Sequence record: NZ_CP033968.1
Direction: 5' to 3' (one strand)
DNA length: 64,000 bases
From: a plasmid
In this document: piece after piece, positions 8,695-57,550 of the stretch
Position numbering within the stretch: position 1 is the first letter of the stretch
Layout: every line of letters starts with the position of its first letter
Made by a program: the position numbers and the translations under genes
The notes under the pieces: model-generated
The model's database searches: none
What the model was told of the DNA's origin: nothing
Seen by the model: only the letters and a program-made list of their open reading frames with translations

Positions 8695-9117
8695 ATGGAT
8701 ACCCCATACATCGCAAAGTGGGCCCGTAGTGAAGACAGCGTTCACGAGCAGGCGCTGAGGCTTCGGACGCGGAGGTTCGAGCTGTTATCTGCAAACATCG
8801 CGAACGCGGACACACCGAATTTCAAGGCGCGTGATCTCGACTTCAGTGCCGAGTTGGAGCGGGTGATGGGGAGTGGGCAGAATTTCGCCGGCATGACGAT
8901 GACCTCGCCGCGACATATCGAAGCGAGCAAGTCGGCGCTGGAGGAGGACCTTATGTATCGGGTACCGCTTCAGTCGAGCATGGACGGCAACACCGTCGAG
9001 ATGGACGTCGAGCGCGTGGCGTTCGCGGAGAATGCGCTGCGTATGCGATTCTCCATTCAAAAGACCGCCGACGAGTACAAGGATATGCTCAAGCTTTACC
9101 AGGACATGCGGCCGTAG
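8695..9117 (+). CDS. flgB: Flagellar basal-body rod protein FlgB homologue (orphan)
   Basis: LLSANIANADTPNFKARDLDFSAEL and LMYRVPLQSSMDGNTVEMDVERVAFAENALR align with FlgB (ANIANADTPGYQARDIDF...[32 protein letters not shown]). GGAGAG RBS before the ATG at 8695. No flgC or other flagellar genes follow. Confidence 0.65.
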   Translation: MDTPYIAKWARSEDSVHEQALRLRTRRFELLSANIANADTPNFKARDLDFSAELERVMGSGQNFAGMTMTSPRHIEASKSALEEDLMYRVPLQSSMDGNTVEMDVERVAFAENALRMRFSIQKTADEYKDMLKLYQDMRP

Positions 9118-9604
9118 TGACAGACGTCAGTCGCCGTCAGATTACCTGAGATTGATGGCGGCGCTCGACGCGTCTCGAGATGATGCTTCTGGTGCGCTCG
9201 CCGGGGACTGCTTCTTCGGCGGATGCGTGGCCGTTCGATGTCTGGGGTTAGCGGCCTTTGCCTGAAGTTGAGCAGGTGCGGCGCATTTGGTGTAGGACTG
9301 GTTGGCCGGGACGACGCTGTTCTCGACAAGATCCGGGCAGTACCTTGTATCGGACAAGGGGCCTGGCGATGGGGACAGCAGCAAGGCCAGGTAGGCAACG
9401 ACACTGAGCATCTTGTAAATTACTAGAGTCTTCCGCGGTGGAAGCGTGTCCGTACGATAGACGCGCGAGATGACTGGCAGATTGCGAAGTAATTACGGGT
9501 CGGCAATGTTTGAGGTGATGGGTCGATTGGGAGTCAAAGGCAAGGCACACTGATTGCTAGTTGTGCGAGTCACTGCCGTCTCAGACCAACTGGAGCCCGT
9601 AACA

Positions 9605-12097
9605 ATGACCGAAAAGCTGCGCTTGGACATCCCTGTTTTACTTCCAGGCATCCCTGATTCCTCGGACCCCTGCGTCGAGCGGCTGCTTGCGGAACTGCGG
9701 GCCAAGGATGGCGTCGATGCGGCACATCTCAAGTCCGGCAGTCCGGGAGATGATCCCCAGCTCTGTGTGCATTACGATCCCGCGATCATTTCTCTTTCCC
9801 GTATCCGCGAACTGGTGACGAGCACTGGCGCGAAGCTTTCGTCTCGCTTTGGCCATGTTGTCTGGAATCTTAAGGGTATTACGCACGCGCGGCGGGCGAG
9901 GACGGTTGCAAGTCAGTTGCGTGATTTTCCGGGCGTCATCGAGGCAGAGGTCAGTGCGGCCGGCATGGCGCGCGTCGAATTCGACAACGAACGGACGTCG
10001 GCGGCGAAGATTCGGGAGGCGTTGGCACAACGGGGCCTTGCGCCGACGGACAGCAGCGCGCGGGGTGATCGTAGCCATGCCGGCCATGATCACGGCGAGG
10101 GTGCCGCGTCCCATGTTCATGGGGAGGAAAAGGGGCATGCCGGGCACGAGCACGGCGGAATGTTCGGGCCGAACACGGAACTGATTTTCTCCGTCATCTG
10201 TGGTGCCTTGCTCGGCGTTGGCTTCGCCATCGAGAAGCTGGTCGCCTATGCGCCTGGCTGGCTGCCGACCTCGCTCTTTGTTGTTGCCTACGTCTTTGGC
10301 GGCTTCTACACCGTACGCGAGGCAATCGAAAACCTTCGGTTGAAAAAGTTCGAGATCGATACGCTGATGCTAGTCGCCGCGGCGGGTGCGGCTTCGCTCG
10401 GCGCATGGGCTGAGGGCGCGCTACTGCTGTTCCTGTTCAGTCTCGGTCATGGACTCGAGCACTACGCGATGGGGCGGGCGAAGCGGGCCATCGAAGCCCT
10501 TGCCGAGCTCACGCCTGCTACGGCCAGGGTGCGCCGCGATGGCGATGTGAGCGAAGTACCGGTAGAGGAGTTGCGGGTCGGTGACGTGGTTGTTGTCCGA
10601 CCAAATGAACGTTTGCCCGTCGATGGATTCTTGGTGAGTGGGACGTCCTCGATCAATCAGGCGCCAGTGACTGGCGAGAGCATTCCCGTCGACAAGCAGC
10701 CGGTGGCTGATGTGCAAGCGGCTAGAACGAGGCCGGACGGTGTAGAGGCCAGCTCACGCGTGTTCGCCGGAACCATCAACGGGGCTGGGGCCATCGAAGT
10801 AGAAGTGACGCGTCTTTCCAGTGAGAGCGCATTGGCGAAAGTCGTCAAGATGGTCAGCGAGGCCGAGGCGCAGAAATCGCCCAGCCAACGATTCACCGAG
10901 AGGTTCGAGCGGATTTTCGTCCCGGCTGTACTTGTGCTGGCGGTATTGTTGCTGTTTGCAGGTGTGGTCGTCGATGAGCCGTTCAGCGCTAGCTTCTACC
11001 GCGCCATGGCGGTGTTGGTGGCTGCTAGCCCGTGCGCGCTTGCCATTGCTACACCTAGCGCGGTCCTCTCCGGGGTGGCACGGGCGGCCCGTGGAGGGGT
11101 ACTCATCAAAGGCGGGGCGCCGCTCGAGAATCTTGGCTCCCTCAAGGCGATCGCATTCGATAAGACTGGAACGCTCACCGAAGGGCGTCCTCGCATCACC
11201 GACGTGTTTGCTGCCGATGGCGTTTCCGAACAGGATTTGCTAACGGTGGCCGTGGCCGTGGAGTCTCTCAGTGACCACCCGCTGGCCGCCGCCATTGCGC
11301 GCGATGGCCGCAAGCGCCTGGAAGGAAGCCCCGTCCCGGAAGCGACGCATCTCCAAAGCCTGACCGGGCGCGGTGTCACGGCGACGTTGGGCAATGAAAC
11401 CGTGTGGATCGGCAAGCCGGACATGTTCGGTGCCGAGGGCATGGCCCCGCTGAGTGACGCGATGACGAAGGCCGCCCAGACGCTGCGGAGCAATGGTCGC
11501 ACGACGATGATCGTGAGGCAGGGGGACCGGGACCTTGGCGCTATTGGTCTGATGGATACACCACGCGCGTCGGCGCAATCCGCACTCCAGGCGCTGCGCG
11601 GTCTTGGTATTACGCGCATGATCATGATCTCCGGCGATCATCAGCGCGCGGCGGAGGCAGTCGCTAAGGAAGTGGGCATCGACGAAGCTTGGGGCGATCT
11701 GATGCCCGAGGACAAGGTCGAAGCGATTCAAAAACTGCGCGCGGAAGCCAAGGTGGCAATGGTAGGGGACGGCGTCAACGATGCGCCGGCGATGGCAAAT
11801 GCCACCGTGGGTATTGCTATGGGCGCTGCAGGTTCCGACGTGGCACTGGAAACGGCCGACGTGGCACTGATGGCCGACGATCTCAAGCACCTGCCGTTTG
11901 TGGTCGGGCTGAGCCGCCACACGCGGGCCATCATCCTGCAGAACGTCTATATCAGTCTGGGTGTCGTGGCTTTCCTACTGCCAGCGACGATCCTTGGTCT
12001 CGGCATCGGTCCCGCCGTCGCGATGCATGAGGGTTCGACCCTCATCGTCGTATTCAATGCACTTCGGCTGCTTGCTTATCGCGACAAGTCCAGATGA
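9605..12097 (+). CDS. Heavy-metal translocating P1B-type ATPase, SPC-motif (P1B-4/CzcP-like) with His-rich N-terminal stretch
   Basis: DKTGTLT, GDGVNDAPA and TGES motifs; transmembrane SPC (VAASPCALAIATP) instead of CPC; HAGHDHGEGAASHVHGEEKGHAGHEHGG His-rich segment; no CxxC HMA motif. The ORF is open from 9554 (TTG) but ATG 9605 has a GGAG RBS. Confidence 0.9.
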   Translation: MTEKLRLDIPVLLPGIPDSSDPCVERLLAELRAKDGVDAAHLKSGSPGDDPQLCVHYDPAIISLSRIRELVTSTGAKLSSRFGHVVWNLKGITHARRARTVASQLRDFPGVIEAEVSAAGMARVEFDNERTSAAKIREALAQRGLAPTDSSARGDRSHAGHDHGEGAASHVHGEEKGHAGHEHGGMFGPNTELIFSVICGALLGVGFAIEKLVAYAPGWLPTSLFVVAYVFGGFYTVREAIENLRLKKFEIDTLMLVAAAGAASLGAWAEGALLLFLFSLGHGLEHYAMGRAKRAIEALAELTPATARVRRDGDVSEVPVEELRVGDVVVVRPNERLPVDGFLVSGTSSINQAPVTGESIPVDKQPVADVQAARTRPDGVEASSRVFAGTINGAGAIEVEVTRLSSESALAKVVKMVSEAEAQKSPSQRFTERFERIFVPAVLVLAVLLLFAGVVVDEPFSASFYRAMAVLVAASPCALAIATPSAVLSGVARAARGGVLIKGGAPLENLGSLKAIAFDKTGTLTEGRPRITDVFAADGVSEQDLLTVAVAVESLSDHPLAAAIARDGRKRLEGSPVPEATHLQSLTGRGVTATLGNETVWIGKPDMFGAEGMAPLSDAMTKAAQTLRSNGRTTMIVRQGDRDLGAIGLMDTPRASAQSALQALRGLGITRMIMISGDHQRAAEAVAKEVGIDEAWGDLMPEDKVEAIQKLRAEAKVAMVGDGVNDAPAMANATVGIAMGAAGSDVALETADVALMADDLKHLPFVVGLSRHTRAIILQNVYISLGVVAFLLPATILGLGIGPAVAMHEGSTLIVVFNALRLLAYRDKSR

Positions 12098-12103
12098 TGC
12101 AAA

Positions 12104-12136
12104 GGTCGCGTTCAGGCAAGGATGCCGGACGCGACC
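12104..12136. terminator. Probable bidirectional stem-loop between the convergent ATPase and His-rich mini-protein genes
   Basis: GGTCGCG-N19-CGCGACC hairpin followed by a T-rich stretch (cacagttttt). Confidence 0.4.
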
Positions 12137-12153
12137 GCCCTCACAGTTTTTCC

Positions 12154-12462
12154 TTACTTGGCTTTGCCGCAACTGCCGCAGAACTTGGCATCTTGCGCAA
12201 GGGCGGTGCCGCATTGCGTGCACGGCGTGGGAACCAGCGAACTACCGCATTGTTGGCAGAAGCGTGCACCATTGACGCCCACAACACCGCAGGTTGGGCA
12301 GGGATGCCTGGCGTAGCTCTGCGGCGGCGCAGGGGGATTGCCGTAACCGTTGCCGGAATCACCATAACCATTGCCGTGATGGCCTCCGCCGTGACCGCGC
12401 CGCATTCCCTTGCCATGGTGGCCGCCGCCGTGACCGCTCAAGAGTCGTTCCAGGAAACCCAT
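12154..12462 (-). CDS. His/Gly-rich small protein with C-terminal double zinc ribbon
   Basis: 102 aa: GHGGGHHGKGMRRGHGGGHHGNGYGDSGNGYGNP repeats, then CPTCG...FCQQCG...CTQCG...FCGSCG (two CxxC-x-CxxC ribbons). Strong AAGGAGAG RBS. Convergent on the metal ATPase. Confidence 0.65.
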   Translation of the reverse strand: MGFLERLLSGHGGGHHGKGMRRGHGGGHHGNGYGDSGNGYGNPPAPPQSYARHPCPTCGVVGVNGARFCQQCGSSLVPTPCTQCGTALAQDAKFCGSCGKAK

Positions 12463-12703
12463 CTATTCTCTCCTTAGTGGATATGTGTCGTCGCGTTTGC
12501 GGGGCGCTCGGGACCTTCGCTTCGCTGTCCCGTAGCGCATCGCGTTGCCAATGACTGCAGTAGATAGTCTGTAGTAGCTACAGGGTCAACGGATGAAAAT
12601 GGCGAGGGGTGGTGAAAGTTGCTGGTATTTCACATTCTGTCAAAGACGTCATGATGCCGACGCTTGCTCGCCATCTGCGGGCGTCGCGCACGTCTTCAGC
12701 CGG

Positions 12704-13828
12704 CTAACGAACCGAGGCCAGCTTCTCGGTTAGAGCGGAGGCTTGGTGCCGGCCGTCCGCCAGATCCGGCTCTTCACCCTGAGATCTACCCGGTGCGTGG
12801 AAGATGGCTGCAGGCGCCATTGGGGTCCTTGCTGGCTGCCGCGGTTCCTGAACTACGCCGCTGACGCTAGGCTCGGTGCCTGCGGGCGCTGCATAGCTCG
12901 CAACGAGATACACCGGGCGTCGCTTGACCTCATTAAACAGCCGCCCGACATACTCCCCCAGTATTCCGAGAAAGACGAGTTGCAGCCCGCCAAGCATCAG
13001 CAGGACGGTCATCATCGATGGATAGCCGTGTACAGGGTCGCCATAGAGCAGCGTCTTGCCGACGATGTAAGCAGCCATGCCAAATGCAGGGATGGCGACA
13101 AGCAGGCCAATGGAGGTCGCGAACTTGAGCGGGACAGTGGAAAAGGCGGTAATGCCGTCCACCGCAAAGCGCAGGAGCTTACGGTAGTTGAACTTGGTCG
13201 TTCCCGATGCCCGTGCGTCGCGCCGATACATGACCGCGGTCTGACGGAATCCGATCCAGGAGTAAAGCCCCTTCATGAACCGGTGTTGCTCTCGAAGCTG
13301 CCCCAATGCAGCCACAGCACGCCGGCTCATGACACGGAAGTCACCGGTGTCGGCCGGGATCTCCGTGTCGCTGAGTTTGCCCATCAGTCGATAGAACCAG
13401 TGCGCGGTGAACTTCTTGAGGAACGACTCGCCGTCCCGAGAGGTACGCGTGGCATAGACCACGTCGAAGCCCTCTCGCCATTTGTCGACCAAGGCGGGAA
13501 TCAACTCCGGCGGATCTTGCAGGTCGGCATCGATGATCACCACGGCGTCACCGCCTGCCACATCGAGGCCTGCGGTCAGTGCGGCCTCTTTGCCGAAGTT
13601 GCGACTAAGTTCGACAATGCCCACGCGCGCTTCATCGGCCTTCAGACGGTGCGCCAGTTCCAACGATCGGTCTCGGCTGCCATCGTCGACATAGATGACT
13701 TCGTAGTCGGAACCCAGTCCCTCCATGACGCGGAGGAGCCGGAAATGAAACTGGGGCAGGACGGCCTCTTCATTGAAGAGCGGCACGACGACCGAAATCT
13801 TCTCGGTCGGCAGGGTGGGATCATTCAT
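12704..13828 (-). CDS. GT2-family polyprenyl-phosphate glycosyltransferase (ArnC/GtrB-like)
   Basis: KISVVVPLFNEE...YEVIYVDDGSRD...IIDADLQDPPE...two C-terminal TM helices. ATG 13828..13826 overlaps the TGA of the upstream GtrA-like gene (ATGA). The longer annotated ORF (to 14041) is an in-frame upstream extension. Confidence 0.85.
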   Translation of the reverse strand: MNDPTLPTEKISVVVPLFNEEAVLPQFHFRLLRVMEGLGSDYEVIYVDDGSRDRSLELAHRLKADEARVGIVELSRNFGKEAALTAGLDVAGGDAVVIIDADLQDPPELIPALVDKWREGFDVVYATRTSRDGESFLKKFTAHWFYRLMGKLSDTEIPADTGDFRVMSRRAVAALGQLREQHRFMKGLYSWIGFRQTAVMYRRDARASGTTKFNYRKLLRFAVDGITAFSTVPLKFATSIGLLVAIPAFGMAAYIVGKTLLYGDPVHGYPSMMTVLLMLGGLQLVFLGILGEYVGRLFNEVKRRPVYLVASYAAPAGTEPSVSGVVQEPRQPARTPMAPAAIFHAPGRSQGEEPDLADGRHQASALTEKLASVR

Positions 13829-14208
13829 CGCATCGCTCCATTCATGAACGTCCAGTTTGCATGGAGTACGTAGTTGACCAACATGACTAAAAGGGTCGAG
13901 GCGATCTGGGCAATCAGGTAATGCAGACCGACGGCCAGTCCTGCCCACATCAGAATTGAGTTGAGCAGGAATGCCAGGACCGAGACCAGGATGAACCGGA
14001 CGAAGGCGGCGCGCTCCGAGTGAGCACGTACGAACACCCATCGGCTGCTGATGAAATAGTGGCTCAGCAGTCCGACGACGCTACCGGCTGCCGACGCCGG
14101 TAACGCAGGCGCACCAAAGCTGACGAGCGCGATCAGCGCGGCATAGTGCAACGCAGTAGCCGTCGCGCCAGCGCCAAGAAATCGTACAAAACGCGCCGGG
14201 ATGGTCAT
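13825..14208 (-). CDS. GtrA-family small membrane protein (putative polyprenyl-P-sugar flippase subunit)
   Basis: About 127 aa, four hydrophobic helices (FVRFLGAGATATALHYAALIAL...YVLHANWTF), GtrA-like. ATG 14208..14206 overlaps the TGA of the ArnT-like gene (ATGA). Confidence 0.75.
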   Translation of the reverse strand: MTIPARFVRFLGAGATATALHYAALIALVSFGAPALPASAAGSVVGLLSHYFISSRWVFVRAHSERAAFVRFILVSVLAFLLNSILMWAGLAVGLHYLIAQIASTLLVMLVNYVLHANWTFMNGAMR

Positions 14209-15866
14209 GGCTTCTGCACGAGAACGTTGACGCCATGTCGGCTGAGCACGGTCGTATCCGCTCCGAGCAACGCCTTCAGTCGCTCGAACGTGTCCTTGCG
14301 CATGACGGCGAGCTTGTGGCCGGGGGCTGTCCATCGCTGTACAAACGCAGCTTCATCGGCGATCCACTTGTTGGGTTCGACCGTGAAGCCAAGATCCAGC
14401 TCGGATCTGGCCCCCACAATGGTGGGCTCCCGCTCGGCATAGAATGCCAGGCCCCGGTCAATCTGCCCGACGTTGAACAGTTCCGTGTTGATGCGGGCCG
14501 CAGCTTTGGCTTCAATGCCGATCGGCTTGATGGAAAGCGATTCAAATGCTCGCGACGCCAGCAGTCCCGTCTGTAGGCCGGCAAGTGTCGCCAGGGACGC
14601 GACGGCGACCGCGCATAGCCTGCGGCCACGCATAGCGATGCCAAAGGCCAGGAAGCCCCCCAGCACCAGGATCGCCATGGTGACGGAGCCCCATACCTGG
14701 AGCGATGCTGGGTCAGTGACGTCGCGCTTTAGCACCGCACCCGACAGTGTCGGGTGCCACAGCAGAAACGCGATCGCTACGCCAAGCAGCGGCAAGGAGA
14801 GGAAGCTCGCGGCAAGGGTGGGGCGACTCACGGCCATTGCCCGATGGGCAAGCAGTACGGCCGCCGGCGGAAAGGCGGGGAGGATATAGAGCGGCAGCTT
14901 GGAGCGGGAAATCGAGAAAAATCCAATCACCACGATCACCCATAGCGACAGAAATAGCTGGGAATCGAAGCTCCGCGTTGTCCGGGCCAATCCCGGCCGA
15001 GGTGCGATGGCGCCGGGAATCAGAGCGATGAACGGCAGGACGCCGGCGGCACCCACTGCAAGGAAGAACCAGACGGGCTTGTCTCGCTCATGCACCGAAG
15101 ACGAGAACCTTGCAAAATGCTCGTGGATGAAGAAGTAGTTTAGAAACTCCGGGTTGCGTACCGAAACCATGATGATCCACGGCACTGCAATCGCAACGGC
15201 GAGCAGGCTCCAGCGCCAGAATTTGGTGCTCAGGAAGCTGAAGATCTGCCCGGTCAGCAGTGCATAGAGCAACAACGTGATTGCTGGCAGCACCACGGCG
15301 ATCAAGCCTTTGGCGAGGAAAGCCAGTCCAACCAGCAACCAGACGGCTGGGAACAGGCGAGGCTCTCGCTTCTGGTAGGCGACCGTGAACATCAGGGCTG
15401 CGCTTCCGAGAAGCGCACCGACGCCAATGTCCGTCGTTGTCAGATTCGAGCCAAGAATCCAGAGCGGGGCGCCAACAAGTGCTAGTGCAGCAGCCAGGCC
15501 CATCTGGCTTCCGTAGAGCAATCGCGCCGCCCACCATGCGGCAGCGACGCCCAAGAGTCCTGCGAGGGCACTCCAGATCCGGGCGGTCCATTCGGAAGGG
15601 CCAAAGATCTCGTAGGCGGTAGCGGTCGCCCAGTACTGGAGCGGTGGTTTGTCGAAGAACTTGACGCCGTTCAGGCGTGGTGTGACCCAATCACCTGAGA
15701 CGTACATCTCGCGGGGAACCTCGGCGTATCGCCCTTCATCGGGCTCATACAGCGGGCGCATGGATAGCGTGGAAATCCAGAGGACCACCGTGATCGCGAT
15801 GGTCAAGGCCAAGAGAATCTTTCGCTTCAAGAGACTGCCCATCAAGGTTTCGGCGACAATCGCCAC
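14205..15866 (-). CDS. ArnT/PMT-family (GT39/GT83) lipid-linked glycosyltransferase, polytopic membrane protein
   Basis: RPLYEPDEGRYAEVPREM..GDWVTPRLNGVKFFDKPPLQYW signature of 4-amino-arabinose / dolichyl-type transferases; 553 aa with many TM helices. First gene of an ATGA-coupled three-gene operon. Confidence 0.85.
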   Translation of the reverse strand: MAIVAETLMGSLLKRKILLALTIAITVVLWISTLSMRPLYEPDEGRYAEVPREMYVSGDWVTPRLNGVKFFDKPPLQYWATATAYEIFGPSEWTARIWSALAGLLGVAAAWWAARLLYGSQMGLAAALALVGAPLWILGSNLTTTDIGVGALLGSAALMFTVAYQKREPRLFPAVWLLVGLAFLAKGLIAVVLPAITLLLYALLTGQIFSFLSTKFWRWSLLAVAIAVPWIIMVSVRNPEFLNYFFIHEHFARFSSSVHERDKPVWFFLAVGAAGVLPFIALIPGAIAPRPGLARTTRSFDSQLFLSLWVIVVIGFFSISRSKLPLYILPAFPPAAVLLAHRAMAVSRPTLAASFLSLPLLGVAIAFLLWHPTLSGAVLKRDVTDPASLQVWGSVTMAILVLGGFLAFGIAMRGRRLCAVAVASLATLAGLQTGLLASRAFESLSIKPIGIEAKAAARINTELFNVGQIDRGLAFYAEREPTIVGARSELDLGFTVEPNKWIADEAAFVQRWTAPGHKLAVMRKDTFERLKALLGADTTVLSRHGVNVLVQKP

Positions 15867-16334
15867 CGATATTCGTCAATTACTGTCAGCCCCAGCGAAG
15901 GGCCAGGGCCTCGGAGGTGTTGCGTTGCTCTCGTGACGTTGTGCGTGTGGCAGAACACGTGGCGCATTCTTGATCTCCGCGAGGAGTAGATGCGACTTGC
16001 ACTGGGAGTCGATTGGGTGGCGGCCGGCCGGAGTGTCGCTGGGCGTCCGAGCCCTCGATCCCTGGAAGCGAACAGGGGGATTCTAGGGGGCTTACCTGTC
16101 GGGGGGATTACGAAATGATGACGGCGTAGCCACTGACGAGTATCTAGCGAAAAGAAGGCGGAACGTCGCAGCGTTGGCCCCATACCAGTCGCAGGGGCTG
16201 TAATCGCTTCGCAATGCGCAAGCAATCTTTCTCATAGTAGACTCGCGCCGCTCCCGCTTTGACGTTGAACTTTCACGAAGGTCGACAGACCGCTCACAAG
16301 ACTAGGTGCGGACCGTTGCGGACTGCGATGCCTG

Positions 16335-16868
16335 GTGGTTTCCTCCACGCAGCAGAATGGCGAAATATTTCGGGTCATGCGGTCGATATTGACATCCGCT
16401 CTGTTGATGATCTCGGCCTATCAGGCGTGGGATTTCTACCATCTCGCTACCAAATCCACTGATTCCCATGCATTTGCGGAGGCAGGTGTCGGCGCGGCAG
16501 GGATAATGGCAATGGCCTGGCTCGTGATTCGTGAGCGACGGCGTCGCTCCTTACAGAAACTGCGCGCGGTTGCCGCCAGTGCGGCGGCGCGACAGCAGGC
16601 GATGATCGAGCGAGACGAAGCGTCCATCCAAGTCACGCGGAATTTCCTTCAGTCGATGCGAATTCAGTTCCAGCTGTGGAAATTGACGCCATCCGAGATG
16701 GATGTGGCAACGCTTCTGATGAAGGGGCTTTCCGTCGAAGAATGTGCGCATGCGTTACAGTGCGGTGATACGACCGTACGGGAGCATGCTGCCAGCCCGT
16801 ACAAGAAGGCGGGCCTCGCCAATCGCCATCAGCTTGTTGCCTATTTTTGGGGCGATTTGTTGGGGTGA
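16335..16868 (+). CDS. LuxR/GerE-family HTH regulator with N-terminal membrane segments
   Basis: C-terminal LTPSEMDVATLLMKGLSVEECAHALQCGDTTVREHAASPYKKAGLANRHQLVAYF is a GerE-type HTH. Two hydrophobic helices at the N-terminus. Start possibly Met 16377. Confidence 0.7.
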   Translation: MVSSTQQNGEIFRVMRSILTSALLMISAYQAWDFYHLATKSTDSHAFAEAGVGAAGIMAMAWLVIRERRRRSLQKLRAVAASAAARQQAMIERDEASIQVTRNFLQSMRIQFQLWKLTPSEMDVATLLMKGLSVEECAHALQCGDTTVREHAASPYKKAGLANRHQLVAYFWGDLLG

Positions 16869-17017
16869 ACCGATGATTACTGCGTCCCCGCTCATAGAGC
16901 GTGCTCTGTAGATTCGATACGGTTTGGCACGCCTTCGCACGAACGTGCGAGGTTGAATCAGGCAGCACCAGACTAACAAATTAGATTACCGGCACTGCGT
17001 CGCCGCGTGAGCAGGTT

Positions 17018-17596
17018 TTGTGTCGTGAGCGTATGAACAGACTTCTTCAAGCTATACACGATAGCCTTCCCCCGTGGATGGCAGATTGGTTCGATATTCT
17101 GGTCCCGGCAGTTGAGGTTGTTCTGATAGGCGCGGTTGCATGGCTAGCGGTGCGCATCGCAAGTCGGTTGCTCCGGAAGCTGACAAAAACGTATTTACTA
17201 CCGGCCAAGGTCGCCGCGCTTTCGTTGCGTGTCGTCGCGGCGATCGTCTACGTGGCGGCCACCCTGTGGGCTTTGGAGCGATTGGGTGTATCCGGTACCG
17301 TACTGTGGACGGCATTCACGGGCTTCGCGACCGTCGGTGCTGTCGCGTTCTTCGCGGCGTGGAGTGTGCTGTCGAACTTGTTCTGTGCGCTGCTGATCTA
17401 CTTTACCGGGGCATTCCGCATCGGGGAAACGGTTGAGCTGCTCGAGAATGGAGAAAAGCCAGGGATAAAGGGACGGGTACAGGACATCAACCTCGTCTAT
17501 ACGACGTTGCTGGAAGCTACCTCAGACGGACAGGAGGTCGTGCTACAGCTACCGAATAGCTTGGTGTTTCAGCGTGTTCTTCGACGATGGAAGTAG
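17018..17596 (+). CDS. MscS-family small mechanosensitive channel-like protein
   Basis: Three TM helices followed by a beta-domain GD.VE...G.V.DI.L..T.L (FRIGETVELLENGEKPGIKGRVQDINLVYTTL). Start likely Met 17033. Confidence 0.6.
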   Translation: MCRERMNRLLQAIHDSLPPWMADWFDILVPAVEVVLIGAVAWLAVRIASRLLRKLTKTYLLPAKVAALSLRVVAAIVYVAATLWALERLGVSGTVLWTAFTGFATVGAVAFFAAWSVLSNLFCALLIYFTGAFRIGETVELLENGEKPGIKGRVQDINLVYTTLLEATSDGQEVVLQLPNSLVFQRVLRRWK

Positions 17597-17811
17597 GATC
17601 GGACGATCACTCCGCACGACGATATATTGGAACTGGGAGGAAGGCCGACCGAACGCAAATGGTGACGCACTTTGGTCGCGCGGACTGACGGGTCGAACGT
17701 GTCTGCTGGCAGGATTCGAGGCAGCCCCCTTGCTTGCCAGATACCGTCACGCCTGGCATTTCCTTTGGCGCGGAAGGACAATGTGCTTACTCGGTTTGAG
17801 GTTCTACGGCA

Positions 17812-18867
17812 ATGTCTCTGCGTACCGCTTCCCCAGCACTATTGGCGGCACTCCTCTTCGGTGCCAGTACACCCCTTGCAAAATCCCTGACCGGCGCGGT
17901 CTCACCGATCCTGCTTGCGGGACTCTTGTATCTCGGGAGCGGCGTCGGGCTTGCCTTGGTGATCGTGGCGCGACGGCTGTGGCACCCACCCGCCTTGTCG
18001 AGTGAGCAGCTCGGCATACCTAAGGCTGATTGGACCTGGCTATTGGGCGCCATCCTAGCTGGTGGCGTCGCTGGCCCAGGGCTTTTGATGACCGGGCTCG
18101 TGTCAACCAATGCCGCGTCGGCATCACTCCTCTTGAACGTAGAGGGAGTGTTCACCGCGATGATTGCCTGGATCGTGTTCAAGGAAAACGCCGACCGGCA
18201 GATTGTGCTCGGCATGATTGCCATCGTTGCGGGCGGTATGCTGCTCTCCTGGCAGCCAGGAAGTCTGCAGTTGTCGATGGGCGCATTATTGATCGTCGCG
18301 GCTTGCCTGTGCTGGGCAGTGGACAACAACCTGACGCGCAAGGTGTCGAGCAACGATGCGCTCTTGCTGGCTTGTATCAAGGGGCTGGTCGCCGGGCTCT
18401 GCAATACAGCGTTGGCCCTGGCGCAGGGGGCGGCATTGCCTTCGCCAACGGTCCTAGCCGGTGCGATGTTGGTCGGATTCGCCGGCTATGGCGTTAGCCT
18501 TGCGCTGTTCGTGGTAGGGTTGCGCGTTCTCGGCACCGCCAGAACGGGAGCTTATTTCTCGGTAGCCCCGTTGATTGGGGTCGTGATCTCGTTCGCGATT
18601 TGGCCAGAGGTGCCGAGCGTGGCGTTCTGGCTCGCCGCAACGTTGATGATGCTGGGGGTGTGGTTGCACTTGCGGGAGCGGCACGAACATGAGCACACCC
18701 ACGAGCCGCTCGATCATATTCACGCGCACCGGCACGACGAGCACCACCAGCATACGCACGACTTTCCCTGGGACGGCCGAGAACCCCACCGGCATCGGCA
18801 CCATCACGAAGCGCTTGTGCACAAACACCCGCACTATCCAGACCTCCACCATCGCCATTCGCATTAG
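17812..18867 (+). CDS. DMT/EamA-family transporter with His-rich C-terminal tail
   Basis: Ten predicted TM helices with duplicated EamA halves. The C-terminus is EHEHTHEPLDHIHAHRHDEHHQHTHDF...HRHRHHHEALVHKHPHYPDLHHRHSH, about 30 His in 70 aa. Confidence 0.75.
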   Translation: MSLRTASPALLAALLFGASTPLAKSLTGAVSPILLAGLLYLGSGVGLALVIVARRLWHPPALSSEQLGIPKADWTWLLGAILAGGVAGPGLLMTGLVSTNAASASLLLNVEGVFTAMIAWIVFKENADRQIVLGMIAIVAGGMLLSWQPGSLQLSMGALLIVAACLCWAVDNNLTRKVSSNDALLLACIKGLVAGLCNTALALAQGAALPSPTVLAGAMLVGFAGYGVSLALFVVGLRVLGTARTGAYFSVAPLIGVVISFAIWPEVPSVAFWLAATLMMLGVWLHLRERHEHEHTHEPLDHIHAHRHDEHHQHTHDFPWDGREPHRHRHHHEALVHKHPHYPDLHHRHSH

Positions 18868-33352: not shown

Positions 33353-34537
33353 CTACTGTGGCGGGGCGGGCGCGGTGGGTGGTTGAGCTTGTTGCTCGCC
33401 CACGGTGTGCGCATGCCGCCGGTCGTCCTCGGCGTGCAGGTAGATGCCGGTCGTCTCGATCGAGGCGTGCCGCAGGTTCTTCTGAATAAAGCGGATATCG
33501 GTACCCGCGTCGGCCTGGTGCGAAGCCGCGGAATGGCGCAGCCAGTGCGTCGAGGCACGCGCCAGCGTCGCCGCGCCGGCCGGATCGCTCGCCTCCAACA
33601 CGGCGGCCGCCCGCCGGAACACTTCCTTCGCGATCAGATAGACCGCCGTCGGCGTGAGGTGCCGCTGCGCGTCCCCGGCGACGCTCAGGATGGCCGGGCT
33701 CAGGTCACCGGGCCCCGGCATCGGCGGCAGGCCGTGGAACGCGCGATAGCGAGCAAACTCGGCCATCAACGCGTCGCTCACTGGTACCTCGCCCTCGGCG
33801 CCGCCCTTGCCGACAACGTACAGCCACCAGCGCCCGCGCCGCTGGACAAAGTCGGCTGCCTTCGCGTGGGCGGCTTCGCTCGCGCGCAGCGCCGTATGGT
33901 AGAGGAAGCGCATCACCCAGCGGCTGCGCTCGTAATGCTGGCACTCGCGCGGCGTGCCCTGCGGCCAGCCCTCCATCGACGCGAGCACCACCTGCCACAG
34001 CGCATGATCGAGATAGCGCTCGACGCGTCGCGCGCGCGAGCCACGCGTTGAACGGCTGCGGCGCAGGGCAAGCGGATTGCCTGCGAGGTAGCCGGCCGTG
34101 ACAAGGTAGTCCAACAGACCCGAGAGGATGCCGAGCGCTTGACGGCGGCTGCCCTCGGCGAGCGGCCCCCCGAACAGGCGCCGAGCGCCGCCGCGGCGCG
34201 GCAGCGCCGGGTCGATCCAGTCCGCCGTTGGCGCGGCAAGGAAACGTTCGTACAGGAGGAAATCCTCGCGCGTGAGGCTAGAGAGCGGCTTGCCCAACGT
34301 GCGCGTTGCCCAGATGAGCAGCCGTACTACTTCCTTTCGGTAGCTGCGCAGCGTGTGCGGCGAGCTGGCGTACTCGGCAAGCCACAGGCGTACGGCCTCG
34401 ATATCGGTGTCGGCGGCGATCTGGCGGTGGCCGCCGCGCGCGCGGTTGGTACCGTCATGGCCGTCGAGTGCGGCGGGCAGCGCGACGAGCAGAAGCGATT
34501 CGGGGGCTGGGGCAGGCAGGTTCATGGGGTTCCGCAT
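33353..34537 (-). CDS. tnpS: Tyrosine recombinase, TnpS-like (cointegrate resolvase of Tn4651-type transposons)
   Basis: 394 aa; catalytic R...HWLRHSAAS...R..GIYLH (R-H-R-Y tetrad region). Divergent from a TnpT-like gene with a 133-bp palindromic intergenic res-like region. Lies inside the Tn3-family element. Confidence 0.7.
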   Translation of the reverse strand: MRNPMNLPAPAPESLLLVALPAALDGHDGTNRARGGHRQIAADTDIEAVRLWLAEYASSPHTLRSYRKEVVRLLIWATRTLGKPLSSLTREDFLLYERFLAAPTADWIDPALPRRGGARRLFGGPLAEGSRRQALGILSGLLDYLVTAGYLAGNPLALRRSRSTRGSRARRVERYLDHALWQVVLASMEGWPQGTPRECQHYERSRWVMRFLYHTALRASEAAHAKAADFVQRRGRWWLYVVGKGGAEGEVPVSDALMAEFARYRAFHGLPPMPGPGDLSPAILSVAGDAQRHLTPTAVYLIAKEVFRRAAAVLEASDPAGAATLARASTHWLRHSAASHQADAGTDIRFIQKNLRHASIETTGIYLHAEDDRRHAHTVGEQQAQPPTAPAPPQ

Positions 34538-34670
34538 CGTACACCTAGTAACCTTACGATTATGCGCGTTATCGTAAATTTCTACGGCTTGTGATTACAG
34601 ATATAACGTAATACGATCATATACATCAGTCAGATTCACGAAATTCCACCCTCTCAGCCCGCTTCCGCCC
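34538..34670. promoter_or_regulatory. Putative res/recombination site and divergent promoter region between tnpS and tnpT
   Basis: AT-rich segment containing the inverted repeat TTACGAT-N10-ATCGTAA plus additional ACGTAATACGAT half-sites. This position corresponds to the res site in TnpS/TnpT-type transposons. Confidence 0.5.
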
Positions 34671-35618
34671 ATGAGCCGTATCAGCGATACCCGTCTACGC
34701 ACCCGCGACGCCGCCGCGCGCTTGGTTTCCGCGGGCCGGCACCCGCATGAACTCACCGTCGACCTGATCTACGCCGAGATCCGCCAGGGCAGCCGCACCA
34801 CCATCAACGACGAGCTGAAGCTGTGGAAGGACGAGCAGGCGCGCAACGACGCGCTCTCCGCCGCACTGCCGCCAGCAGTCGCCAACGCCATGCTGTCGGT
34901 CTGGGCGTTGGCCGTCGAACAGGGGGAACAGGTCTTCGCGCAGCGCAGCGGGGAGTTTGAGGCCGAAGCGACCGCCGCCATCACGCGCGCCGAATCGCTG
35001 CAGGCCGCCAACACAGGGTTGCAGGCGGAAGTGCAAACGCTTCGCGCCCAGGTTGACGACCTGCAGGCGCGGCTCGCTACCGCGCTGGCCGCTCACGCCC
35101 GGGGCCAAGCCGAACTGGAGGCTGCCATCCGACGGGCCGAAGCCGCCGCGGCTGAGGGCGATGCCGTGCGCGCGCAAGCAGAGCAGGCCTTGCGCGAAGC
35201 GCAGTCCGCCCATGCCCGCGAACTGGAAGCACTGCGGACCGCCCGCGCCGAACACGAGGCCGCCCTGCGGGTGGAGGTCGACCAGGCTACCGCCCGGCTC
35301 GAAGGCGTGCAGAAGCTCGTCATGCTGCAGACCGAGGAAGCGCGCGAAGCCCAGCGTCGCGCGGAAGCTGCCCTTGCGAAGACCCGCCAGCGCAACGAGC
35401 AACTTGTGGCTGACGGGCAGCGGCTCAGCGCCGACGCTGCTGAACACCGCCGGCTGGCCGAACGGCATGAAAAACAGCTCGCCAGTGTCATGGAAGAGAC
35501 GCGCGAACTGCGGCGTGAGCGCGATTCCCTGACCCAACAGGTCGCCCTGCTGCAGGGCCAGCTCAAGGGTCGCGACGAGTCTGCGCCAGCGCGTACAGCC
35601 AGGCGTCGCGCCGGCTGA
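34671..35618 (+). CDS. tnpT: TnpT-like recombination accessory protein (KfrA-N-like DNA-binding head plus Ala/Glu/Arg-rich coiled coil)
   Basis: 315 aa; N-terminal LVSAGRHPHELTVDLIYAEIRQGSRTTINDELKLWK resembles KfrA_N. The remainder is a long alpha-helical AEAR repeat region. Orientation and position match Tn4651 tnpT. Confidence 0.6.
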   Translation: MSRISDTRLRTRDAAARLVSAGRHPHELTVDLIYAEIRQGSRTTINDELKLWKDEQARNDALSAALPPAVANAMLSVWALAVEQGEQVFAQRSGEFEAEATAAITRAESLQAANTGLQAEVQTLRAQVDDLQARLATALAAHARGQAELEAAIRRAEAAAAEGDAVRAQAEQALREAQSAHARELEALRTARAEHEAALRVEVDQATARLEGVQKLVMLQTEEAREAQRRAEAALAKTRQRNEQLVADGQRLSADAAEHRRLAERHEKQLASVMEETRELRRERDSLTQQVALLQGQLKGRDESAPARTARRRAG

Positions 35619-47028: not shown

Positions 47029-47752
47029 GCGGGGGACGGCTTGATTGAGCGAGCGCGGCCGGATCTGCCCGCGGCGGGCCAGTATGCCCCAGGCCGCCGC
47101 TCCAGCGCGTGACAATTGCGTAATGAACGACACACTCTCAGCTCGCCATTCGGCCCTGCGTCGAGCGGGCCGTTGGCGCGTTGTTTACAGGGCAGGCTGG
47201 TCCGGTCAAAAAGTGCGTACTTCGGTATTGCGCTTCGTACCCTTGGTAAGCGTTGGCGTCGCCATCCGCAGAATGCGCCTCTGCAGACCGCGACAAGGCC
47301 GGAGCCTACCGGCAGTTTTCCGAATTGTTCACTATCGTGCCTCCGGAGACTCCTCGCCGTGAAAGGCATTGCGCTTCCATTGGGCGCGAGGTTGCTGCAC
47401 CCAAAAAGGCTCACTCGAAAATTCCTGCCTTGCCCCTGGACGGGTTGGCGGGCGACGCCGCCTTCAAAATGCGCCTGGACACGCCGCACTCCCCAAACCC
47501 TTCTATATATAGAGGGCGGGAAACTCGCCGGCGCAGTCGTCGCGCCGCCCGCCGCCCGCCTCCCTCGTCGGCCCGTCATCTCGCGCAGCATCGGCATCGG
47601 CGGGCTGAGGTTGGCGCGATCCCCGTCTCAAACTAAATGGGCACACTTGCAAAATGCCTCATAAGGTACTTTTCGTGCCAGTCCCCGCCAAAAATGCACT
47701 TTTTATGTGTGCATGATAACTACACTTATCAAGCATAGAAAAAATAAGGTAC

Positions 47753-47812
47753 GGGTCACCTAGTATCCCGCACAGGGCAGGGCCTATAATGTGACCCATT
47801 CGCGCGTGACCC
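47753..47812. promoter_or_regulatory. Inverted/direct repeats GGGTCAC-N31-GTGACCC-N8-GTGACCC overlapping a TATAAT -10 box, 50 bp upstream of the island's first gene
   Basis: Read directly: GGGTCAC 47753..47759, TATAAT 47785..47790, GTGACCC 47791..47797 and 47806..47812. The region immediately 5' (47640..47750) is conspicuously AT-rich. Confidence 0.4.
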
Positions 47813-47861
47813 GCGCCGGCGCTGGGCTGGCGGGTGGCAGCGCCCACCGACCCTGAACCAC

Positions 47862-49136
47862 ATGGACCGCGATCCCGACACTCTGCAGCAGGTCACCCAA
47901 TCCCACCTGGAGGCCGCCGCCGACGCATGGCAGGCGGGCGAGCGGGTCCCCGGGCTGGCGTCACATTCGCCGTGGGAGGCGCTGATCGCGGGGCAGTGGT
48001 ATCCGAACAAGGCCATTCTGGCGCTCGCGCACCGCCTGGCGGGTTTCGGCGACCTCACGGCAAAAACGCTGGCCGGCGCCGCCGTCCGCCGGCGACTGGT
48101 GGCGCTGGATATCCCGCTGCGGAATGCCAGACAGGAGACGAGCTCCGACACGCGTCCGGATTGGTCGCGGCTCCAGGCGCACCACGTGGAAGCCGGCGCC
48201 GCCGAACTGTCCCGGGAACTGGAACACTTGATCTCGATAAAACAGATTGCCCACAAGCCGCACGAGACCGGCTGGCGGGTAGGCGTGAATGGGCTCTGGA
48301 TCGGGCCATATACGCTTGGCACCGCGGCCTGTGACGTGGCGGGGCTGCGTTTCGAGCGGGAGATGACACCCGTCGAATATGCGCAGTACCGCGCGCACCT
48401 GGAGTCGCTCGGCTTTCCGGTGAAACGTGGCCGGACACCGACCCGCACCAAACCCACCTGGGGCGCCGGCGAATTGCGCGCCGCGGCAGCGGCGCTGGTC
48501 GGGAGGGATCTTGAAGCCGCAGACGCCGCCGAAGGCGAAAGCGAACCGCTCCAAGTGGTCCTGGACGGCCGGGCGTACCCAGCGTCCGACCTGCTCGGTC
48601 TGCCGGCCGGCCAAACGCCCTCTGCGCAAGACCTGACCGCGATCGCCGAAGCCGGGGGCGCCTTGCGTGCCGCTCCTGACCCTGTTGACGACGCGCTGGA
48701 AGCCTTGGCCGCCCAGAGCGGGTTGCCCACGGAAGCGGCGCGTCAGGTGCGGGGCCGGATCGGGCAGGGACGGTTCCGCGACGCGCTGCTCCAGGTCCAC
48801 GGCCGCTGCGTCCTGACCGGCATCGCGACCCCGGCCGTCCTGCGCGCGGCGCACATTCATCGCTGGGCGGACTGCGCCGACACACCGACCGCCCGCCACG
48901 ACATTGACAACGGCCTGCTGCTGGCCGCGAACCTCGACTGCCTGTTCGAGACCGGGCTGATCGCCTTCCACGACGACGGCCAGATCCTGATTTCACCCGA
49001 ACTGGACGAAGCCGCGCGTGACGCGCTGGGCCTCAGACCGGAACTGCGGCTGGCGGTCGTACCATCGGCTGGCCAGCGCGGTTACCTCGCCAAGCACCGC
49101 GCACGCACCCGGGCCATGCGCGGGGCTTCGGCATGA
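47862..49136 (+). CDS. Two-domain protein with C-terminal HNH_2-type nuclease domain (restriction/Abi-like)
   Basis: C-terminus GQGRFRDALLQVHGRCVLTGIATPAVLRAAHIHRW...DIDNGLLLAANLDCLFETGLIAF fits the HNH_2 pattern (Q-G-x-FR...C.ITG....L.AAHI.P.....N..NGL.L....H..FD.G). The N-terminal roughly 300 aa is uncharacterised. Stop overlaps the start of the recombinase (ATGA). Confidence 0.65.
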   Translation: MDRDPDTLQQVTQSHLEAAADAWQAGERVPGLASHSPWEALIAGQWYPNKAILALAHRLAGFGDLTAKTLAGAAVRRRLVALDIPLRNARQETSSDTRPDWSRLQAHHVEAGAAELSRELEHLISIKQIAHKPHETGWRVGVNGLWIGPYTLGTAACDVAGLRFEREMTPVEYAQYRAHLESLGFPVKRGRTPTRTKPTWGAGELRAAAAALVGRDLEAADAAEGESEPLQVVLDGRAYPASDLLGLPAGQTPSAQDLTAIAEAGGALRAAPDPVDDALEALAAQSGLPTEAARQVRGRIGQGRFRDALLQVHGRCVLTGIATPAVLRAAHIHRWADCADTPTARHDIDNGLLLAANLDCLFETGLIAFHDDGQILISPELDEAARDALGLRPELRLAVVPSAGQRGYLAKHRARTRAMRGASA

Positions 49137-51277: not shown

Positions 51278-51302
51278 TTGAAATCAACCTATGGGGGAAG
51301 CG

Positions 51303-51632
51303 ATGTTCGAAGTTCGTCGAGCACGCCTGCTAGCGAAGATGCTAGCGCGTGCCTACCGCATTGAAATGCGGCTCGGCAAGAGGCTGGTCACTACCGTCAG
51401 CGGCTGGGCTTTACAACGTCGCACAGTGAGCGTGGACATTGCAGAGACCGCGTGGGTTGCTAGTGACAAGCCTCGCGTGCGCCTAGTCGTTGACTTCATC
51501 AACGAGCGCATCGAAGTTCGGCAGTACGCAAGTGGCAGAGGCGACGAACTGAAGTTCATGGTTACGTCACTTGAGCAGTTCAACACCGTTGGCCACCAAA
51601 TCGTCGCGTACCTGGTACGCACCTTCCCCTAA
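51303..51632 (+). CDS. Hypothetical small protein
   Basis: 113-aa ORF directly after the recombinase. No recognisable motif. Confidence 0.35.
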   Translation: MFEVRRARLLAKMLARAYRIEMRLGKRLVTTVSGWALQRRTVSVDIAETAWVASDKPRVRLVVDFINERIEVRQYASGRGDELKFMVTSLEQFNTVGHQIVAYLVRTFP

Positions 51633-51704
51633 GTTATTGGGGGTTGGAAGATCGGTACTGCCAACAGCTTGATTCGGGTCCACGATAGACAAAGGGCAGG
51701 GGAC

Positions 51705-52325: not shown

Positions 52326-52439
52326 GTCACGGTCACTGCCAAAGCCTCGCGCCGTACTCCGGACGTGTCATGATCGCCGATCGCCGCGCGGCAATTCAGT
52401 TACATTGCGCCTAACCGTACTAGCTGACAATTGACCCTA

Positions 52440-53249: not shown

Positions 53250-53306
53250 ATCCGCCGCCAAGCGTGTGGCGACAACACAGACCGGCTTTGAAGAGATACG
53301 AGACTA

Positions 53307-54497: not shown

Positions 54498-54604
54498 CTT
54501 CGGCAATTAAGCCCGGCGCGACGGAGGTAATCTAGCCGCCCCCCATGTGCGCCCTGTGACACAGATCAAGACCAACCATCACCAGAATCGCAAGACGATC
54601 AACA

Positions 54605-55297: not shown

Positions 55298-55550
55298 GCA
55301 GGGGCGGGCCAGCCAATGGCGGCATGACATGGCAGGGGAACGGCCGGTCACCCAGACCAATGATCAGACCACTTGATCTTCTGCCGACGATGAGTATCAT
55401 GCTTGGAGCGCTGCCCAAGCCTTCCGTGCACCCGCCGACTCGGCGGATGGTAAAACAGGGCCTATTCCACCTCCTCATTCTCGTGCTGACTTCTGTCGCG
55501 GCCGAGGCAATGTGCACACCTCTCACGCCGCGCAAAATGGAAGACTCAGC

Positions 55551-57098: not shown

Positions 57099-57210
57099 TC
57101 TCCGGTCAGCATTCTGGATGTACATGCGCGAGAGAGGGGTAAGGGAGGCAAGGCCACGGCCAGAGTTGATTGGTACAATCCGCCGTGAGCCTTAGCCACC
57201 TACTTTCGAT

Positions 57211-57543: not shown

Positions 57544-57550
57544 CCCATGA

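Follow-up and report, generated by a model that had tools for sequence, protein, structure and literature searches.

What might a 102-residue protein, rich in histidine and glycine in its first half and built of zinc ribbons in its second, be doing next to a heavy-metal pump? The question is raised by a 64,000-nucleotide stretch of plasmid DNA (sequence record NZ_CP033968.1; the whole stretch is referred to here as the window), which matches plasmid p1 of Cupriavidus metallidurans BS1 (NZ_CP037902.1) at 100% identity, p1 being a conjugative plasmid of the pMOL30 type originating from a gold-copper mine. A preliminary description of the sequence had drawn attention to three genes: one for a P1B ATPase, a second, convergent on it, for the small protein, which we call the mini-protein (gene mini), and a third for a DMT-family transporter with a poly-histidine tail. 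We find that the ATPase, which is of the CzcP type, the transporter, which is of the CnrT type, and the czc neighbourhood around them are already known and ordinary, and that the mini-protein is the real lead among the three genes, as a candidate cytoplasmic metal buffer or hand-off protein.

The mini gene occupies 12154-12462 on the minus strand and converges on the ATPase gene across a gap of 56 bp (12098-12153, from the mini stop to the czcP stop); a terminator scan of 11900-12800 found no terminator-like site. The ribosome-binding site, AAGGAG (12470-12475, minus strand), lies 7 nt before the ATG and is retained in the alignment with pMOL30, and both the convergent protein with its paired CxxC motifs and this near-consensus site are present as the preliminary description had reported. 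Among its 102 amino acids the product has 7 His, 24 Gly and 8 Cys. It consists of a conserved amphipathic N-terminal helix (residues 1-9, MGFLERLLS), a disordered His/Gly-rich arm (residues ~10-52) and a double zinc ribbon containing eight Cys (residues 55-99), with 'GHGGGHHG' occurring twice in the N-terminal half and four CxxC pairs in the C-terminal half. The ribbon matches Pfam DZR (PF12773) with E=1.6e-11 and a score of 44.6 bits against a cut-off of 27.3, residues 55-99 aligning with positions 1-45 of the 45-position model, and the Prokaryotic Genome Annotation Pipeline (PGAP) labels the gene as 'zinc ribbon domain-containing protein' only. An AlphaFold2 model agrees with this layout (a helix at residues 4-9, pLDDT below 50 for residues 24-49 and 70-80 for the ribbon domain; mean 62.7), and a search of solved structures returned only marginal generic zinc-ribbon matches. 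As the sequence contains no signal peptide and no hydrophobic or transmembrane-like segment, the mini-protein is predicted to be cytoplasmic; of the periplasmic or cytosolic metal buffer or chaperone suggested earlier, the cytosolic role is therefore plausible while the periplasmic location is rejected.

A homologue search covering 5.8 billion proteins found 58 homologues, mostly from Burkholderiales and none with a specific name, and these, together with the PGAP annotation and a ratio of non-synonymous to synonymous substitution rates (dN/dS) of 0.26 between the BS1 and pMOL30 orthologues, identify the open reading frame (ORF) as a real gene and not a chance one (in more distant pairs the synonymous sites are saturated and the non-synonymous measure, pN, is still near 0.3). 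We then examined the best 150 matches from a profile search of 1.84 billion representatives at 50% identity. Fifty-four of these were short (≤150 amino acids), and the architecture is common to 53 of the 54, so that the family comprises 53 clusters or more at 50% identity. The strict N-terminal motif is present in 45 of the short representatives and exactly four CxxC pairs in 51; ahead of the first ribbon the medians are 5 His and 11 Gly. The layout is the same in each of the 70 distinct genomic copies that we recovered. Family alignments show an N-terminal motif (M-G-F/I/L-L/F-E/D-R/K-L-L, then GGHH), a variable His/Gly-rich arm of ~40-50 residues with a Pro-rich end, and two Cys4 ribbons with the motifs (A/S)RFCQQCG and AKFCxQCG in which the Cys are invariant or nearly so. 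The first eight residues are the most conserved non-Cys feature, and they and the eight Cys are kept across Burkholderiales, Enterobacterales and Pseudomonas. We therefore define the family by a length of ~85-115 amino acids, a start of the form M-[GS]-hydrophobic-hydrophobic-x-[KRNHQ]-hydrophobic-hydrophobic, a G/H-rich stretch of low complexity, and two Cys4 ribbons with (A/S)(R/K)FCxxCG, and the mini-protein of the window shows every one of these features.

The DZR domain itself is very widespread (28,350 representatives at E≤0.001). The mini-protein resembles it in that residues 55-99 span the whole model above the gathering score, while it differs from this generic domain, which has no known role and occurs in thousands of architectures, in the addition of the N-terminal motif and the His/Gly arm, and no Pfam or NCBIfam model covers that combination. 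A literature search found no paper discussing the gene or the family beyond a figure-legend abbreviation, 'zrb' (PMC7019866), and the earlier remark that small proteins of this kind are not a described family stands: the family is undescribed and has a fixed architecture. It should be noted that C. metallidurans CH34 has small cytoplasmic proteins of unknown function, Rmet_2300 and Rmet_2305, next to cadA/cdfX and co-transcribed with cadR-cdfX and cadA-cadC (PMC11580412); a P. aeruginosa plasmid DZR match that we examined as a possible counterpart of these was found in a non-metal context.

The family travels with metal exporters. A scan of one genome per GTDB species gave 80 loci, and as the scan pattern lay in the ribbon part of the protein, the N-terminal architecture shared by these loci is no artefact of the search. 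A P1B ATPase lies within 10 kb of mini in 52 of the 80. When the mini sequences were collapsed at 80% identity into 41 clusters, 31 had an exporter (a P1B ATPase, a CzcA-type RND pump or a CDF) within 6 kb and 26 had one within 700 bp, as is also the case in the window, where czcP is 56 bp away. The ATPases near mini are either of the P1B-4 type (SPC and HEGST motifs; 50-84% identical to the window ATPase) or of the ZntA/CadA-like P1B-2 type (CPC motif; 38-41% identical). Conservation beside metal ATPases, put forward in the preliminary description as one test of its proposal, is thus seen with both P1B types and extends to CzcCBA and CDF exporters.

The mini and exporter genes are arranged in at least five independent ways: mini convergent on a P1B-4 pump (Cupriavidus); mini with a P1B-4 pump 29-54 bp beyond it, usually shortly after czcCBA; a CPC pump and, divergent from it, a MerR gene, with mini 43-270 bp beyond the pump (Paraburkholderia, Paracidovorax, Albidiferax and Aquitalea; Rubrivivax has the same pump-mini pair, with a MerR-like match which clustering did not place in the MerR family); czcCBA followed by mini; and mini followed by a CDF gene. 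A Pfam-annotated Variovorax contig with the order OEP-CzcB-CzcA-126aa-mini is an independent case, and the Tn3-family transposon TnShfr1 of an Enterobacter plasmid (locus L083, 6869-8703) contains tnpA, mini, a resolvase gene and a CDF gene and nothing else. We note that CPC ATPases encoded directly upstream of mini have His-rich, CxxC-free N-termini with 9-45 His while those encoded farther off have 1-6, which is suggestive of His-to-His transfer, in a small sample that is mostly from Paraburkholderia and phylogenetically clustered (L013, L023, L027, L042, L046, L051, L056, L066, L073, L076 and L079).

A further group of loci (L028-L037) holds near-identical 97-residue mini genes, in two variants that differ by one substitution, in metagenome-assembled genomes and isolates of many unrelated taxa (Thiobacillus, Limnohabitans, Aquabacterium, Rhodocyclaceae, a Planctomycetota bin and others). 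Here the companions are czcCBA, a 132-residue His-rich periplasmic protein, an LspA-like membrane protein of 158 residues and often a second czcCBA, and the pattern points to a widely spread mobile element.

The region upstream of the window's mini gene looks like a metal-sensing operator-promoter of the MerR type (ZntR/CadR/PbrR-like; 12552-12589, minus strand). Read from the sequence, it has a -35 element, TTGACC (12589-12584), a 19-bp spacer with the dyad CTGTAG-CTA-CTACAG (12583-12565), a weak -10 element, TCTACT (12564-12559), and a predicted transcription start site (TSS) at the A at 12552. In four Cupriavidus loci (BS1, pMOL30, another Cupriavidus plasmid, and C. pinatubonensis, where the ATPase is absent), the core, TTGACC CTGTAGCTACTACAGACTA TCTACT (12589-12559, minus strand), is kept without change amid intergenic DNA that has diverged, and the operator-promoter pattern matches once in the window with none expected. 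Promoters with 19-bp spacers and a dyad are a hallmark of the MerR family (PMC3431237), and the zntA promoter of CH34, where zntA is controlled by ZntR (PMC11580412), reads TTGACC CTGTAGCGACTAAAGGGTC TTCAAT with a published TSS 7 nt after the -10. The mini promoter has the same -35, spacer length and TSS offset, and its left half-site, TTGACCCTGTAG, is identical. More generally, it shares with ZntR/CadR/PbrR operator-promoters (zntAp, and PpbrA of pMOL30) the TTGAC(C/T) element, a dyad directly after the -35, a TTnAnT-like -10 and a start 7 nt on, while it differs from them in a degenerate outer right half-palindrome (ACTA, not GGTC) and in having no adjoining MerR gene in the window. The genes for ZntR, CadR and PbrR lie elsewhere in C. 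metallidurans (PMC11580412, PMC3431237), and a regulator of this class would be the candidate for binding.

In several loci an operator of the same type separates a MerR gene from a CPC pump, and in loci of Bordetella, Pseudomonas and Collimonas one is placed directly upstream of mini. In the Paraburkholderia pump-mini operons we read TTGACC-N19-TTTACT beside the divergent MerR gene; a strict operator regular expression found no match in these MerR-ATPase intergenic regions, where the related promoter was read by eye.

Published data from CH34 indicate how strongly the orthologous promoter responds. The pMOL30 orthologue is RMET_RS33240 (92152-92454, minus strand), a locus tag out of numerical series which suggests that the gene was a late addition to the annotation. 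As czcP has the same coordinates (89605-92094) in the transcriptome study PMC11647585 and in the RefSeq record, TSS_92535(-) of that study can be assigned to a position 81 nt upstream of the orthologue's ATG, the seventh base after a TTTACT -10. In Table 9 of the study, its score rises from 277±12 in unchallenged cells to 167,358±14,211 with an eight-element metal mix (Zn, Cu, As, Hg, Cr, Cd, Ni and Co; PMC11647585), an induction of about 600-fold, and it is the strongest start on its strand; by comparison, the scores given there are 1,202 and 2,639 for the czcP promoters after induction and 28,233 for the cnrY promoter. The metal-dependent expression that the preliminary description had named as a second test is therefore seen at the orthologous promoter, and both the fit of the TSS to the long-spacer -10 and the activation by metals concern the pMOL30 orthologue.

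The transcriptome and proteome studies of CH34 relied on an older annotation that lacks the mini gene, and the signal was therefore read as czcP 3' untranslated region or antisense RNA. The interval is listed by the authors as the czcP 3' untranslated region, and a czcP antisense RNA, verified by reverse-transcription PCR and up 76-fold with metals, is reported with no directly upstream TSS found (PMC11647585); the mini-protein is not mentioned in the companion proteome paper (PMC11647595). As there is no terminator-like site between the mini stop and czcP, read-through from the mini promoter would be a simple source of this signal, and we infer that at least part of it arises in this way.

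Taken together, we interpret the mini-protein as a real, metal-inducible and probably cytoplasmic protein of an undescribed family, and most likely as an abundant, fast-exchanging buffer for Zn, Cd and Co, although on this reading as a whole we are about evenly divided. In Cupriavidus the gene would be transcribed from its own MerR-type operator-promoter of the ZntR/CadR/PbrR class, and its expression would respond to excess cytoplasmic Zn or Cd (possibly Co or Pb) alongside the inner-membrane exporters. The His arm, and perhaps the thiolate ribbons too, would capture surplus Zn(II), Cd(II) or Co(II) and keep it as a loosely bound pool for CzcP, for P1B ATPases of the ZntA/CadA type and for CDFs of the CzcD type, with the short N-terminal helix perhaps docking the protein to the membrane or to a pump. 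CzcP has been described as exporting zinc that is 'loosely bound' in the cytoplasm (PMC11580412), and it would be speculation that the mini-protein contributes to that pool. The very high promoter output is more in keeping with a stoichiometric buffer than with a catalytic factor and, with the varied exporter classes, favours a general buffer or hand-off protein over a chaperone for one pump. As a side effect specific to Cupriavidus, unterminated mini transcription would run antisense into czcP. The bolder version, in which the family is a new class of cytoplasmic Zn/Cd/Co buffer or metallochaperone, co-induced by ZntR/CadR-type sensors, feeding P1B-2, P1B-4 and CDF pumps as the divalent-metal counterpart of CopZ, and with its promoter as the main source of the 'czcP antisense RNA', is possible, but we lean against it.

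Several points weigh against the buffer interpretation. The His content is modest (7 of 102 residues, and a family median of 5 before the ribbons), and two structural Zn ions may be all that the eight Cys bind. The inducing mix held eight elements and so pinpoints no single inducing metal, and TSS_92535 was classed as RpoD-type by the authors (PMC11647585). A tblastn search of the window with an E. coli ZntR query found no MerR gene, and a regulator would therefore have to act in trans. No exporter lies within 6 kb in 10 of the 41 clusters (in four of which the flank on one side is shorter than 3 kb); the exporter-free loci include Variovorax and Caballeronia as well as Dickeya, whose homologue, like a more distant P. 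aeruginosa DZR protein, is in a non-metal context. The chance of a random gene lying within 6 kb of such an exporter is a few percent, a background rate which we estimated from typical gene counts and did not compute. The linkage to three exporter classes, including RND operons that take periplasmic substrate, also speaks against one specific partner. Finally, the promoter DNA can also be read as an ordinary sigma-70 promoter with a 17-bp spacer (TTGACC-17-TATCTA). This reading was not accepted by a consensus scan; the 19-bp layout is common to zntAp and to the MerR-adjacent promoters, and the published pMOL30 TSS, which is 7 nt after the -10 of the 19-bp reading and 9 nt after that of the 17-bp reading, fits the former better.

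Zinc ribbons are common protein- and nucleic-acid-interaction modules, and the mini-protein might instead be a regulatory adaptor, in which the ribbon and N-terminal helix bind the cytoplasmic domain of a pump, ZntR/CadR or CzcS/CzcR and tune export flux or sensor feedback, with the His arm as a metal-dependent switch. The conserved N-terminal eight residues do resemble a short docking peptide, the His-rich, CxxC-free N-termini of the CPC ATPases just upstream of mini (9-45 His, against 1-6 in non-adjacent pumps) would suit such a contact, and small Czc accessory proteins have regulatory roles in CH34, such as CzcI as a quencher (PMC9045368). However, the extremely high promoter output would be unusual for a regulator, and neighbours that vary by locus between P1B-4, P1B-2, CDF and RND exporters imply no single partner, and we consider this role unlikely.

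We hold it still less likely that the buffer interpretation mistakes for function what is only linkage, the mini-protein being a generic double-zinc-ribbon protein that hitch-hikes on mobile metal-resistance islands with a His/Gly tract of low-complexity filler. Many of the loci belong to plasmids, transposons or islands, unrelated taxa have identical copies (L028-L037 and L001-L008), DZR domains are very widespread and some homologues are in non-metal contexts. Against this, the 26 of 41 clusters within 700 bp of an exporter were counted after dereplication and come in several unrelated gene orders, mini has its own MerR-type metal promoter or is inside MerR-controlled operons, the induction by metals is ~600-fold, and the minimal transposon TnShfr1 keeps mini as one of only two cargo genes, with the CDF gene.

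The transcript could also be the functional product, as an antisense RNA that controls czcP in an excludon-like convergent arrangement, with the ORF secondary. The 56-bp gap with no terminator-like site, the 76-fold rise of a czcP antisense RNA for which no TSS was found directly upstream, and TSS_92535(-) as the strongest start on that strand (PMC11647585) are all as this would predict, but the ORF has a strong ribosome-binding site and is under purifying selection (dN/dS 0.26), with eight invariant Cys and an N-terminal motif retained across Burkholderiales, Enterobacterales and Pseudomonas, and in most loci mini is co-directional with, or far from, any ATPase, where an antisense effect is impossible. 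We regard this as very unlikely, and antisense control as at most an added effect specific to Cupriavidus. It is scarcely credible that mini is an envelope-modification accessory acting with glycosyltransferases as the last gene of a gtrM-gtrA-gtrB (GT39/GtrA/GT2) operon. In the window and the pMOL30-type loci the GT2 gene does precede mini on the same strand, at a distance of 241 bp, C. pinatubonensis (L048) retains gtr and mini without the ATPase, and GT2 or EptA-like genes are nearby in Herminiimonas and other loci. However, the gtr linkage is found only in Cupriavidus (11 of 80 loci), a promoter specific to mini lies between gtrB and the mini ATG, and most family members have no glycosyltransferase neighbour.

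The two other genes of the preliminary description are more readily placed. The ATPase ORF is listed as 9554-12097 with a TTG start at 9554, although the likely start is the ATG at 9605, giving a protein of 830 amino acids (9605-12097, plus strand). It matches Pfam E1-E2_ATPase and Hydrolase and scores 573 bits with TIGR01525, and the SPC motif on which its identification as an SPC-type P1B ATPase had relied is present (residue 475, in transmembrane segment TM4), as are DKTGT (519) and HEGST (808, in TM6). This combination, SPC in TM4, HEG(G/S)T in the last transmembrane segment and the DKTGT phosphorylation site, is the P1B-4 signature in Argüello's classification. The His-rich feature described as an HxH-rich loop exists (residues 157-188, with 8 His), but is not a loop: it belongs to a cytoplasmic N-terminal extension before TM1, where it follows an HMA-like segment without CxxC. 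With 84% identity to the ATPase at the czcP position of pMOL30-type loci, the protein is a P1B-4 CzcP orthologue, and Zn/Cd/Co export is a putative function based on orthology. CzcP of pMOL30 is Rmet_5970, a P1B-4 Zn/Cd/Co ATPase according to the passages in PMC9045368 and PMC11580412 that cite Scherer & Nies 2009. The window ATPase shares its three motifs and its place after flgB at the end of the czc determinant, and differs in being a diverged second copy on the BS1 plasmid, in which we saw nothing functionally new. The origin of the deposited circular plasmid record (window 10653/10654) falls inside this czcP-like gene, at about codon 350 of 830, and may be an artefact of record linearisation; the ORF is uninterrupted in the window.

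The transporter gene (17812-18867, plus strand) encodes 351 amino acids with two EamA repeats (Pfam) and is 80% identical, across all 351 residues, to a gene annotated as 'cnrT: nickel diffusion facilitator CnrT' (H57), and the protein is accordingly a CnrT-type transporter. The poly-His tail is there (residues 286-351; 18667-18864, plus strand), at 25 His in its 66 residues (38%) slightly short of the claimed 30 or so in 70, and is conserved in sequence, beyond composition, in Thiobacillus, Albidiferax and Aquitalea homologues (L063, L066 and L073). CnrT is listed as a DMT-family inner-membrane Ni(II) exporter (PMC7019866, PMC11647595), which makes the metal-chelate exporter suggested earlier unnecessary, and we prefer to that role a cation exporter of the CnrT type; efflux of Ni(II)/Co(II) is putative, as the published statements concern CnrT only. 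Like CnrT of pMOL28 (Rmet_6211), the window protein has two EamA repeats and a conserved His-rich tail, but unlike it, the gene stands alone beside MscS-like and LuxR-type genes and not at the end of cnrYXHCBA. We also observed compact divergons in two other genera (L066, 5949-10141, and L073, 4202-8575) with a His-tailed CnrT-like gene and a MerR gene on one strand and a CPC ATPase gene and mini on the other, and the transporter and mini-protein therefore sometimes share one regulatory unit.

The deposited annotation, mapped on the window, gives the order czcA (partial), a czcD-type CDF gene, czcR, czcS, czcE, a small hypothetical gene, a porin gene and flgB, followed by the ATPase gene, mini, the GT2/GtrA/GT39 (gtr) operon, a LuxR-type gene, a small MscS-like gene, the His-tailed transporter gene and unrelated metabolic genes. 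As the order around czcP is identical on pMOL30 of CH34, the metal-homeostasis neighbourhood of the preliminary description, in which all three genes are present, is the tail of a well-studied czc determinant of the pMOL30 type, and the three genes do not form one dedicated system here. The flgB gene (8695-9117, plus strand) is an orphan with the Flg_bb_rod motif only, and its CH34 counterpart is named flgB with its function described as unknown (PMC9045368). FlgB-like genes stand beside mini and czc-type genes, far from flagellar clusters, in 11 of 71 distinct loci from several genera (L015, L024, L026, L039, L048, L058 and L074, and the pMOL30-type L001, L006, L007 and L009). The gtr genes (GT39, which is ArnT-like, GtrA and GT2; 12704-15866, minus strand) also occur in L001-L010 and L048, and the GT2 ORF as listed (445 amino acids) is over-extended at its N-terminus compared with the annotated product (374 amino acids). 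Envelope-modifying genes accompany czc clusters either as this operon or as a gene of ~560 amino acids (L011, L014, L017, L024, L026, L039, L047 and L078), which we took to be phosphoethanolamine-transferase-like (EptA/sulfatase-type) from reading the sequence and not from a domain search. Between the gtr operon and the CnrT-like gene lie a solo LuxR-type regulator gene (16335-16868, plus strand; GerE helix-turn-helix and a weak LIC13292-family match) and a gene for a truncated-looking MscS-like protein of 192 amino acids (17018-17596, plus strand), which are kept in pMOL30-type loci with 52% and 89% identity respectively. Far regions of the window (about 51200-58700, 63100-64000, 33400-35500 and 47700-48500, from the mapped record annotation) hold a malonate decarboxylase/transporter cluster (mdc/madLM), a RES-Xre toxin-antitoxin pair, a phage-type integrase gene with an HNH gene, and two H-NS-like genes, and are unrelated to the mini gene.

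How Zn/Cd/Co exporters acquire metal from a tightly buffered cytoplasm is the wider question on which the mini family bears. Cu(I) pumps have CopZ-type partners, and we know of no comparable partner established for divalent-metal pumps in bacteria. The family offers a testable lead here, in that it travels with three exporter classes through many genera and in minimal transposons, it has a zntA-like sensor promoter, and in a model organism, CH34, that promoter has by far the highest TSS score reported for the region under metal stress; the existing CH34 transcriptome and proteome data are open to direct re-reading with the mini ORF added.

The functionally closest analogues of the mini-protein would be CopZ, GolB, the bacterial metallothioneins and the His-rich storage proteins. 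Bacterial metallothioneins (SmtA/BmtA) and His-rich storage proteins (Hpn and Hpn-like) are small cytoplasmic Cys/His binders which are induced by way of a cytoplasmic metal sensor and thought to buffer excess metal, and SmtA contains a zinc-finger-like element. The mini-protein differs from SmtA/BmtA and Hpn in its far lower density of ligands (Cys 8%, His 7%), in the lack of any sequence match, and in its combination of N-terminal helix, disordered arm and double ribbon; Pfam returned zinc-ribbon families only, with no match to metallothioneins or Hpn. CopZ/Atx1-type chaperones and GolB, of the Salmonella GolS-GolT-GolB system, are also small and cytoplasmic, and are encoded beside a P1B ATPase and co-induced with the pump by MerR-type regulators. 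Each of them is an HMA domain of ferredoxin fold, in which a single CxxC site serves Cu(I) or Au(I), and the mini-protein has no HMA match in Pfam or NCBIfam and an AlphaFold2 model with a short helix and ribbon hairpins only. On these comparisons it lies outside the HMA chaperones, the metallothioneins and Hpn, and belongs to the generic DZR family only. It resembles CopZ and GolB in being small and probably cytoplasmic, in its place beside a P1B ATPase and in what looks like a MerR-type promoter, and differs from them in having two Cys4 ribbons and a disordered His/Gly arm and in its link to several classes of divalent-metal exporter. If the bolder version of our interpretation is true, the mini family would be the divalent-metal counterpart of CopZ.

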